Of a DNA stretch of 64,000 bases, positions 39,101 through 42,100 are shown piece after piece (the stretch's first letter is position 1; each line of letters starts with the position of its first letter). A model generated the notes under the pieces. It did no database searches and was not told the DNA's origin. It was given only the letters and a program-made list of their open reading frames with translations. The stretch is from Euglena gracilis (Eukaryota), in contig CP154954.1 in the NCBI GenBank assembly GCA_039621445.1, positions 47,595,847 to 47,659,846 on the forward strand, in the 5' to 3' direction. Made by a program: the position numbers and the translations under genes.

Positions 39101-42100
39101 ACCGACTCGTCGGTTTAGGACTTTTGGGTTGGCGGAAATCCTGGAGGGGGTCGGTTTAGACGAGGTCGGTTTCAGGGGGAGCACACGGCTGGCCGACGGC
39201 GTGACGGAAGCGGGTTGATGTTAGCAAGGCAATTTCAATTGGCAAATGCCCAATTTTGGTCAGCCAATTCCTAGCTTTGAGTGACAACTGCCTAATTTGG
39301 GATTCAAATTCTTAATTTTCGGGGGCAAATGCTGAATTTTGGGTGTAATATCCAATTTTTGGTGGCAAACTGCCTAATTTTGGGTGCAAACTTCACATTT
39401 TAGGTGGCAAATGCCTAATTTTTTCGGAGGAAAATGCCCAATTTGAGGCGCAAACTCCAAAATTTGGAAGCAAATGCCTAATTTTGGGTGTAAAATCCTA
39501 ATGGGTCATCAGTACTAACTATTCAATGAGCATGGACGCTCTTTCCGTTGGCGGCTTCCATTATGTTGTGAATGTTTGTCGGCAGCCATAATCTACATGG
39601 CCCCCCCGGGGGGGGGCCATGTAGATTATCCAGGGGGTCAAAATAATTTTTTTGTGTTAATGATGGAATAGGGTTAGGTGCGCGACTTAAGGTTAGGGTT
39701 AGGCCTAACTTATAGACGGGTGCTCAGTGTACAAGTTAGGCCTAACCCTAAGCCTAAGCCGCGCACCTAACCATATTCCATCATTAACGGAAAAAAAAAT
39801 GCCCGCCCCCCCGGGACACACTACATGGCCCCCCTGGGGGGGGGGGGCATGTAGATTATGGCTGCCTGTTTGTCATCCAACTTGCCATGGGTCGGTTTAT
39901 TTATTTTTTGTTGAAATTCTGCAATGGGTCGGTTTGGAAGGGTAGGTCGGTTTAAATGGGGGGGGGTTTACCCCGAGCTGGGGAGGGGGGTGACAACCAC
40001 CTTCAGGGGACTCCGGTAAAATTTGGTGTTCACCGAGAAAATGAGGGAAATCAAGAAGCCCCCCACAATCACACACCCGGAAACCCCTTGGTTCAGACTG
40101 CCGACAGTTAAATCTCCATTTCACCCCCCAAAAATTGAGATTGGAACACAGGGGAAACATCTTCCCATATTTAAGGAAAGGTTGGTTCTGTGGAAAAATA
40201 GATCTCAAAGATGCTTATTTCCACTTAAAGCTGCACAGCAGCCTGGAAAAACACGTTTGCATGCAATTAAAAGGGGAGCTGTCCCAAGAGGGTTGCCGCC
40301 AAGGGTGACAGTGTCGGCCAAGTCAGAAAATGCGGAGCAGATGAGCCGGCGGAGGGGCGCTGCGGTAGCTGCCCAAACCCTGGCAAAAGAAGGTCACACC
40401 ACACTTGTGACTGTCGAACTGGTTCTCCAAACAAACGGATGTTGTGGTGGATTATTTTCTGGCAACAAGTGAACTCAAGGATGTCTTGATTTTGTCCTGT
40501 CCAGGCATTCCTAATATTCATAAACGAGTGTTTGTGAAAAATAATGTGATGCAAAAATGGTGAAGAAAACACTTCATTTTCAACTCATGCTTTCACGCTT
40601 TTGAGAGCAAAATTTTGCAAACAAATCATATTTGACAATTTGGTGAGCATCACTGAACTCAATTCTTGATGAAACAAATACAATAAAAATCTACTAGAAC
40701 ATATGCCATACATTTTTTTCATTGAACCCCGACAATGTCTGGTGTTGAATTTAAATTCAAATGTCCCTGCAGCTTTCAAACCCATGCCAGCCGCCAAACC
40801 CCTGCGAAATGCACACACATGCTCCGGGGCACCCCAAATGCAGGGCATCCCCGGGGGCGGAACAGCTCGTCCGAGGCCATGCTGAAGGTGGCCTGCAGGG
40901 AGCCACGGAAACTCGCAAGATCAAGAAGCAAAAAAAAAAAGAAAAGTGAAGGTCGAGTGGGACATGGGACAGTGCCAGCAGCTGCGGCCACACCGCCTTG
41001 GACTCTCCCTTCCCTCTCTGCCGCGTTGGGGGCCCTGCACAACAGCATTCAGTCGGGGGAGTGTACACCTTGCCCTCTGCGGCCTCCTCCTCCGGCAGGG
41101 ACATGTGCTCCGCGTCGATGTCGATGAGGTGCAGCGTCCACTCCACCATCGGGGGTCCCCCACCACCAGGGGGTGTTTTTTAAGTGGTTTTTGAAACCTT
41201 TAAAAAAAAAACGTAGAAAAGAGCTGTAGAATTTTTGGCCAGATTGCCTTAAAAAACCTTAAAAGACCTAAAAAAAAAATGTTTTCAAAAATTGATTTTT
41301 TTTTTGGAAATTTACACCTTAAAAATAATAACCCCCTGCCCACGGCCAGCCTCGATGCGGATGTCCAGCTGCTCCCGCGGCTCCTCCACGGTGAGGGTGG
41401 CAGAGCAGCCACAGCCTCGCCCCCCCCCCCCCACCTGTTGGTGGCAATACAATCCACACAAACCCTGTGCAGTACACAGCACCCGCCGACCCCCACAGGG
41501 TCGTGCAAAAAAATTTTTGGCCTAAAACTGGCACCCGTGGAAGGGGGGGTCTAAACCCCCCTCCACATTGTTCAGTCACAGGGAGGGGCGAGGGCGGGGG
41601 TGATGGGCTCGAGGAGTTTCCGCAGGTGCTCGATGTGGAGCCCCAGGGAGAGGTACGCGTGGCACTCGAAGCGCTGGAAGCCACCGCTCTGGAGGTCCAG
41701 CACCATGAGGCAGGTGTGGGTCGTGTCCATCGCCTGCGGAGGGGGCGGGGGTCCTGTTGGCACAGCAGAAAAAAAAAGTGGAAGCCACCCCGAGCCAAAC
41801 AGGGCACTTCCGGCGCCTTTGGCGCTGGAAGCCCAGAAAAAGCCTGTTTTGGCCACAACCAGGCAGGCATTGAGCCCGGGGGGGGGGGTCCCTGCCCAGG
41901 AACTCCAGGGCACTCCGAGACAGTCGTCAAATTCAGCATACTCAGGCCCCCCAGGCCACTAATCCCTGATCTCTTGGCCAAATGCCCAAGCGCCAAGGGC
42001 TATGTGCCCCCCCTCCCTCCAAGTGTCTTTGAATGCCTGCTCAGGCAGGCAACCCCCCCCCCCAGGGTGGTGATTTCAGAGGCTCGAAAACCTGCCTTGG

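Follow-up and report, generated by a model that had tools for sequence, protein, structure and literature searches.

A nonconventional intron of a Euglena gracilis PCNA-family gene, its 3/5 splice geometry, and the 8-bp target-site duplications of free CAG-ended elements

We analyzed a 64,000-nt stretch of the Euglena gracilis genome (contig CP154954.1, positions 47,595,847 to 47,659,846; hereafter the window, to which all coordinates below refer) that carries a PCNA-family gene on its minus strand. The third intron of this gene raises the question of why the nonconventional introns of euglenids should keep three nucleotides outside their terminal stem on one side and five on the other. For these introns Nomura et al. 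established by knock-in mutagenesis the code 5'-N3CDG-/-CH'GN5-6↓R, where the arrow is the acceptor cut (PMC12501133). An earlier note on this DNA, made from the letters alone, had proposed that 3 + 5 = 8 is no accident: the introns would be hAT-like transposable elements of the miniature inverted-repeat kind (MITEs) plus one copy of a target-site duplication (TSD) of 8 bp, and splicing would erase such insertions exactly at the RNA level. We found that 41162-41341 on the minus strand is a nonconventional intron taken out of RNA, and we consider it likely that it consists of a 172-bp AT-rich MITE together with one copy of its 8-bp target duplication, inserted into a PCNA exon and spliced 3/5.

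Intron 3 is removed from RNA with a 3/5 geometry

Read and contig mapping over 38867-43370 identified RNA joints from 41158 to 41339 that leave out exactly 180 nt and whose position can slide by 5. The skip was carried by 3+4 reads with 7 distinct starts in run X21 and by two reads in run X24, both of them raw RNA-seq runs under the same species label, and by one 529-nt contig of depth 89.6 in X15, a contig run that is probably RNA. The same X15 contig also joined the neighbouring introns (40891 to 41068 and 41409 to 41595). The 41158-to-41339 joint was absent from the DNA run X1, whose contig 40717-41201 passes from the exon into the element. No back-splice rows occurred at intron 3 in this read mapping, which was not designed to detect them. 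At the protein level, a 46-aa exon query retrieved P0001 at 100% identity and P0002 at 85% identity. P0001 is a transcript-derived EukProt protein of 277 aa (eukprot:EG_transcript_22509) holding PCNA_N and PCNA_C, and the exons map exactly onto it. Across the intron 3 junction it reads ..IEAGRGGPPMVEW.., with IEAGR before the junction and GGPPMVEW after it, and its stretch ..DIRIEAGRGGPPMVEWTLHLID.. is the exact product of GCCGT joined to GGGGGA. The RNA skips and the protein across the junction thus agree with the earlier note in treating the locus as a nonconventional intron.

On the minus strand the intron and its borders read ..GCCGT↓ggg CAGGGGGTTATTATTTTTAAGG ... AACACCCCCTG gtggt↓GGGGGACC, and in wider context ..GAGGCTGGCCGT↓GGG CAGGGGGTTATTATTTTTAAGG ... 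AT-rich ... CTTAAAAAACACCCCCTG GTGGT↓GGGGGACCCCCG, with a 22-nt end that is unique in the window. CAG occupies intron positions +4..+6 and CTG positions -8..-6, leaving the spacers GGG (3 nt) and GTGGT (5 nt). The 5' terminal inverted repeat (TIR) CAGGGGGT (41331-41338) and the 3' TIR ACCCCCTG (41167-41174), both on the minus strand, form an 8-bp Watson-Crick stem that is present in the minimum-free-energy fold; the intron as a whole folded no more stably than shuffles (z = 0.92), and the terminal stem alone is meaningful. Because GTGGG is repeated at both junctions, the intron can be placed in six equivalent registers, from 41159-41338 to 41164-41343. One of them is N3(GGG)-CAG..CTG-N5(GTGGT)↓G, and none of the slide registers has conventional GT-AG ends. 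The downstream exon opens with GGG at 41161, giving a purine at its first base, and intron 3 agrees with the code N3-CDG..CH'G-N5-6↓R in its spacers, its stem and its acceptor purine.

The stem is flanked by two 8-mers on the minus strand. The upstream one, GCCGTGGG (41339-41346), has its first 5 nt in the exon and its last 3 nt at intron +1..+3; the downstream one, GTGGTGGG (41159-41166), has its first 5 nt at intron -5..-1 and its last 3 nt in the exon. They are identical at six of eight positions, and both mismatches fall in that part of the downstream copy that is intronic and unconstrained. Both the 3 + 5 = 8 spacer geometry of the earlier note, with CAG at +4..+6 and CTG at -8..-6, and its count for GCCGTggg/gtggtGGG were therefore correct. 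Taken alone, the 6/8 match is suggestive: a lone match of this quality is a ~1-in-100 event, to be set against the 183 CAG..CTG stem candidates of the window.

Between the two 8-mers lies a MITE-like body of 172 bp (41167-41338), short, non-coding, AT-rich and bounded by TIRs, whose 8-bp TIR is perfect and can be extended with one indel. It contains three CCTTAAAA subterminal motifs, and the GC content of the intron is 0.30, versus 0.43-0.77 in the nine other introns of the gene. The 180 nt lost from RNA equal the 172-bp element plus 8 nt, that is, one TSD copy. With the free elements of family B, intron 3 has in common the terminal pattern CAGG..TTTTTAAG and the reiterated subterminal CCTTAAAA. 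This motif occurs 18 times in the window as compared to an average of 4.7 in shuffles, and 12 of the 18 copies fall in the family B elements B1 and B2 and in intron 3, which between them cover 1.5% of the window. A scan of metagenomes with the end motif gave at least 118 single matches, none of them like the element or the window, which are therefore chance matches.

These observations would be joined by a simple sequence of events. An element with an 8-bp TSD would insert into a PCNA exon and duplicate its 8-bp target, and the two TIRs of the element would pair in the pre-mRNA. Nonconventional splicing, with the cut positions reported in PMC12501133, would then cut 3 nt ahead of CAG and 5 nt past CTG and remove the element plus 8 nt. 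From the upstream 8-mer the mRNA would retain positions 1-5, and from the downstream 8-mer positions 6-8; these make up one 8-mer, which would be the sequence before insertion. Given an 8-bp TSD, cuts 3 before CAG and 5 after CTG leave exactly one 8-mer, and since the element ends are palindromic, either orientation works. For intron 3, we regard 3 + 5 = 8 as the element plus one target duplication as well supported. The exact erasure at the RNA level that the earlier note described is likely for intron 3, and the data do not extend it to nonconventional introns in general, as is seen below.

Free CAG-ended elements and their 8-bp duplications

The origin proposed for intron 3 calls for source elements with 8-bp duplications. 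A scan of the whole window anchored on CAG..CTG pairs (at least 10 of 12 complementary end positions, within 2.5 kb) gave 183 pairs. Flanking 8-mers identical at six or more positions were found in 7 of the 183 pairs versus 1.63 expected by permutation (p ~0.001), identity at seven or more in 3 versus 0.3, and perfect identity in 2 versus 0.05. We relied on this CAG-anchored scan, since low-complexity runs of AT and G/C dominated an unanchored scan for any TIR with an 8-mer repeat, and its shift controls were uninformative. We then assembled 12 elements with CAG/CGG..CTG/CCG ends, comprising A1-A4, B1, B2, C, D1, D2, E, intron 3 and a second intron-like element given as an example in the earlier note (example b). 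At k=8, 81 of the 96 flank positions of these elements were identical, as compared to 25-38% at k=4-7 and k=9-12, and none of 100,000 permutations reached 81/96. Elements that had been found by homology or end motif and not by their flanks (A3, A4, B2 and D2) had 25 of 32 positions identical at k=8. Copies of one family each had a different 8-mer and, therefore, behave as DNA transposition predicts. Among seven hairpin or TIR elements of the window with non-CAG ends, none had an 8-bp duplication. The 8-base register is real, the 12-element set as a whole lying far beyond chance, and the data support the conclusion that CAG-ended elements of this genome make 8-bp target-site duplications.

Four of the 12 elements had perfect 8-bp duplications: B1 (22623-23008, CAGGCATTATTTTTTAAGG..CCG ends, TSD GGTCCAGC), its homolog B2 (31290-31705, TSD GTTTGGAA), which was found by end motif and not by TSD, C (46184-46690, CAGGGAATTTCTTAAG ends, TSD ATGGCCAG) and D1 (47315-47766, CAGGGGGGGG ends, TSD AATAACAC). 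Element E (17352-18471, CAGACAGTC ends) had the duplication CTCCCCTA/CTCCCCGA, identical at 7/8. In family A, the TSDs were identical at 6/8 in A1 (36625-36886), A2 (48541-48830) and A4 (6836-7140) and at 7/8 in A3 (57485-57786); A3 and A4 are the two found by homology. Example b (19145-20918, minus strand) has a body at 19153-20910 with CGG..CTG ends and the 8-mers CTGATGAC/ATGATGAC. The 7/8 identity quoted for it in the earlier note was right, and in the sequence a continuous reading frame crosses the junction of this putative intron.

Several other repeats of the window were recorded alongside these. A degenerate third relative of family B (53727-54120) has the left end CACGCTTATTTTTTTAAG and the shared inner stretch ..CATCGCTGG(A/G)ACATTGTC.., and no clear right end or duplication. 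Inside example b lies a 447-bp element (20182-20628) whose perfect 42-nt TIRs consist of (CCGGAAAAAATAACAA) units and for which no target duplication could be detected. The arms of a near-perfect palindrome of 868 bp (60991-61858) measure 226 and 141 nt and are 98% and 99% complementary, respectively; it has no 8-bp duplication at its ends. A 153-bp hairpin element (27549-27701) with CCCTGGGGGGGG.. ends is flanked by TAC/TAC, which may be a 3-bp duplication from another transposon class.

The remaining introns and the rival accounts

In the PCNA-family gene (36191-43918, minus strand), 11 exon blocks were mapped, and of its 10 introns two are GT-AG (introns 1 and 4) and eight nonconventional. 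The exon map was obtained by placing P0001 on the window, and introns 5-10 rest on protein mapping; the exon translations score above threshold for Pfam PCNA_N, and PF00705 was found on the exons. Apart from intron 3, the N3/N5 register was present in four introns of the minus strand. Intron 2 (41411-41595, N3-CTC..GAG-N5↓G) has a 13-bp stem and an RNA joint. Intron 8 (38018-38570, N3-CAG..CTG-N5↓G) is known from protein mapping, intron 9 (37039-37963, N3-CAC..GTG-N5↓G) is not slidable, and intron 10 (36240-36943, N3-CAC..GTG-N5↓G) holds the nested family-A element A1; introns therefore also grow by later MITE insertion. The junction 8-mers of introns 2, 3, 8, 9 and 10 were identical at 3, 6, 3, 2 and 5 of 8 positions, respectively. 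Intron 10 is example c of the earlier note (36237-36948, minus strand), a true intron by protein mapping for which 5/8 was right, but its stem is CAC/GTG and not CAG/CTG. Intron 8 is example d, whose quoted 5' 8-mer lay inside exon 8; with the 5' end corrected, the true intron gives only the 3/8 above.

Some further features of this gene deserve mention. A (CACG)40 microsatellite takes up most of intron 7 (38668-38891; 224 nt, GC 0.77), which has no N3/N5 register, and intron 1 contains a (GT)68 array (43371-43507). At 43727-43801 on the minus strand, an open reading frame (ORF) continuing past exon 1 into intron 1 keeps its match to PCNA_N as far as profile position 63. RNA joins exon 1 to 41733, and the stretch looks like a relic or an alternative exon 2 copy within the 2068-nt GT-AG intron 1. 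Residue 206 of P0001 is Cys, and the corresponding codon of the window (38586-38588, minus strand) specifies Gly, the sole mismatch in the mapped exons and probably an allelic or strain difference.

A number of observations weigh against the origin proposed for intron 3 or against extending it to other introns. The N3/N5 register fits five of the eight nonconventional introns (2, 3, 8, 9 and 10), intron 6 fits with N6 only, introns 5 and 7 fit neither, and MITE features were found in one of the eight, intron 3 itself. The five 3/5 introns together had 19 of 40 positions identical versus a shifted-register mean of 11.2 (20 registers, standard deviation 2.5, maximum 18), a small excess due to introns 3 and 10. 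Within the 64-kb window BLAST detected no second copy of the intron 3 element. The word depth in X1 DNA was 960 over the element versus ~135 in its flanks, which is compatible with further genomic copies and may be inflated by A/T runs. The likeness to the family B TIR claimed in the earlier note accordingly holds for the end pattern and the CCTTAAAA motif but not for a BLAST match, and on its sequence intron 3 appears to be kin to family B at the motif level only. Part of the 12-element set had been picked because of good flanks, a selection that bears on its total. D2 (442-1607), a relative of D1, is the misfit of the set: its flanks are identical at 4/8 at k=8 and at 7/7 at k=7, a 7-nt register. 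Finally, the acceptor spacer may have 5-6 nt and its sequence is free (PMC12501133), so that the ruler can be a property of the RNA enzyme and needs no link to a TSD. The rule 3 + 5 = 8 is thus well supported for the young MITE-intron; the GC-rich introns of the gene, which look older, show it weakly or not at all, an outcome that fits decay and, equally, other origins.

The last point leads to a rival account, that the 3/5 ruler is intrinsic to an older RNA-processing enzyme, that its sum equals the TSD length by coincidence, that MITEs ending in CAG..CTG are just one type of spliceable sequence among others, and that most nonconventional introns have another origin. Introns 2, 9 and 10, which keep 3/5 with CTC/GAG or CAC/GTG stems, a GC content of 0.47-0.61 and no MITE features, are what this account expects, as are introns 5, 6 and 7, which depart from the 3/5 geometry. 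The tolerance of 5 or 6 nt at the acceptor, the splicing of natural and synthetic nonconventional introns at a foreign site, and the 38.8% of E. agilis nonconventional introns that have no code (PMC12501133) point the same way. We nevertheless think it unlikely, since, for a TSD of 8 bp, frame and sequence are restored by a spacer sum of 8 and by no other, which makes the match functionally exact. Moreover, an 8-nt repeat is present at the youngest intron in print (PMC4770533), 69.1% of nonconventional introns are slidable (PMC12501133), and the identity of TIRs and TSDs should fade in old introns wherever these are unconstrained.

The junction repeats themselves could come from a source other than the staggered cut of a transposase. 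For the newly gained, strain-specific gapC intron of E. agilis, which has eight-nucleotide direct junction repeats, double-strand-break repair was proposed (PMC4770533), and microhomology or fill-in could act in the same way here. Such a source is highly improbable, since 8-bp repeats of this kind also flank TIR-bounded, multi-copy families that lie in non-coding DNA, with a different 8-mer at each copy, the signature of transposition, and have a length that is fixed at 8 and not variable. That the 6/8 at intron 3 arose by chance, from G-rich exon composition or from an enzyme preference for similar nucleotides at both cuts would be in keeping with its ~1% probability when several introns were inspected, with the G-rich flanks and with the purine preferred where the acceptor exon begins (PMC12501133). 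Window-wide, however, the signal shows specificity both for k=8 and for CAG-type ends, and the placement of both mismatches in the unconstrained intronic half also speaks against chance, so that we consider this explanation very improbable indeed.

If intron 3 arose by insertion of a TSD-making element, the 3 + 5 ruler may match the 8-bp duplication for that very reason. We put this causal form forward tentatively, at somewhat less than an even chance: the machinery would be a system of precise RNA-level excision for CAG-ended transposons with 8-bp TSDs, its ruler fixed since only a sum of 8 erases them exactly. Each exonic insertion, in either orientation, would then be born as a harmless intron, which would account for the predominance of nonconventional over GT-AG introns in Euglena (71.8% of the introns of E. 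agilis are nonconventional; PMC12501133). In its boldest form, the stem-recognising component would be descended from, or would have co-evolved with, the end-binding protein of the transposon.

Superfamily of the elements and comparison with known systems

The hAT label that the earlier note gave to these elements is a separate matter. The TIR consensus of hAT elements is (C/T)A(A/G)NG (YARNG). The window elements resemble hAT elements in their 8-bp TSDs, their CAG starts (CAGGG in 4/12), their short reiterated subterminal motifs and, possibly, a weak T2/A7 target bias. Left ends are CAG in 11 of the 12, with CGG at one end of example b and of B1; T occupies target position 2 in 5/12, and A occupies position 7 in 7/12 (binomial p ~0.007, in a small and partly selected set). 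For comparison, Ac/Ds elements have (C/T)AGGGATGAAA ends, 8-bp TSDs and subterminal repeats (PMC3260210), and Hermes prefers nTnnnnAn targets (PMC10368747). Several findings count against the label. YARNG fits 4 of the 12 ends (fifth base G in C, D1, D2 and F), the rest having C or A, and families A, B and E differ from hAT in ending CAGGC or CAGAC. Pfam found no transposase in the 20 longest ORFs of the window, in which it detected just PCNA_N and a sub-threshold Zip match. Merlin elements have in common with those described here both the 8-bp TSD and the organism group, two Merlin families with 8-bp TSDs having been reported in E. gracilis (PMC8101967). In the searched literature, supplements being outside the search, we found no hAT assignment for Euglena.

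It is therefore a substantial possibility, though clearly short of even, that the geometry is read correctly and the elements belong to another superfamily with 8-bp TSDs, such as Merlin, P, Novosib or Zisupton. The published Merlin families, the 8 of 12 ends that miss YARNG, and the lack of a hAT transposase among the ORFs searched and of a paper naming hAT in Euglena among those searched all favor it, as does an element with GG termini and a perfect 8-bp TSD described below. Against Merlin in particular, all Merlin TIRs open with GG (PMC8101967), whereas 12 of the 12 elements here open with C right after the duplication, as CAG or CGG; the CAG(G/A)G ends, like the short subterminal repeats and the weak nTnnnnAn bias, fit hAT. 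The superfamilies P, Novosib and Zisupton also make 8-bp duplications. We regard hAT-like as the best guess, with chances that are about even; the label is plausible and not a finding.

The GG-ended element just referred to spans 286 bp (39581-39866) within PCNA intron 6. It has GGCAG..CTGCC ends and the perfect 8-bp duplication TGTTTGTC, and its GG termini fit the description of Merlin (PMC8101967). It lies within a very high-copy repeat (39018-40376, DNA word depth ~10^5), and X1 DNA contigs skip ~296-362 nt at it with short anchors, possibly from paralogous copies without the element.

Much of the framework into which these results fall is in print. The earlier note was right that a transposon origin had been proposed: a MITE origin from inverted repeats was suggested in PMC3935182 and repeated in PMC6221363 and PMC12621601. 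CAG/CTG at +4..+6/-8..-6 as the TIR and TSD-like junction repeats have been described (PMC11282704; the CAG/CTG positions also in PMC3935182), as have the N3/N5 code and the 8-nt repeat cited above. The role of the splicing machinery in mitigating transposon insertions, which the earlier note offered as tolerance and intron generation, is likewise a published suggestion (PMC12501133; also the review PMC11282704). As to whether the TSD geometry had been described, we found neither an explicit link of 3 + 5 to an 8-bp TSD nor a defined TSD length of the source elements in the searched literature, with supplements and the JMB 2021 circle paper outside the search; bioRxiv 10.1101/2023.02.21.529479 and PMC6366073 contained no pertinent material. 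The equation 3 + 5 = 8 thus appears to be unpublished; it usefully connects facts already in print and is supported here by free MITEs and an RNA-verified MITE-intron. To our knowledge, the MITE origin was put forward as a hypothesis in 2013, with neither free elements nor a defined TSD shown since. Free CAG..CTG MITEs with 8-bp duplications, together with an RNA-verified intron of that kind, offer a simple reason for an otherwise arbitrary 3/5 rule and make the MITE-origin hypothesis quantitative and testable.

Compared with other euglenid nonconventional introns, intron 3 is a textbook member and shows no difference: it has the same non-GT-AG ends, CAG/CTG positions, 3/5 spacers, acceptor purine, slidable junction and removal from RNA. 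What it adds is a recognisable MITE body and spacers that would be the halves of an 8-bp target duplication. For nonconventional introns, spliceosome-independent removal and excision as a full-length circle have been reported (PMC11282704). This sets the system apart from the introners of other protists, to which the proposed history of intron 3 otherwise bears a close likeness. Introners of Micromonas, Aureococcus and dinoflagellates, reportedly described by Huff et al. in 2016 (see also the review PMC11282704), are DNA transposons that obtain a splice site from their TSD and are removed by splicing together with one TSD. In both cases a transposon insertion would be born as an intron, and the element plus exactly one TSD would be removed so that the host sequence is restored. 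The two differ in that intron 3 would be removed by the non-spliceosomal euglenid system, with the TIR stem as the ruler, and in that both TSD copies would be cut internally (5↓3) here, whereas introners create GT/AG sites. The element-plus-one-TSD logic of spliceosomal introners would thereby extend to a non-spliceosomal system.

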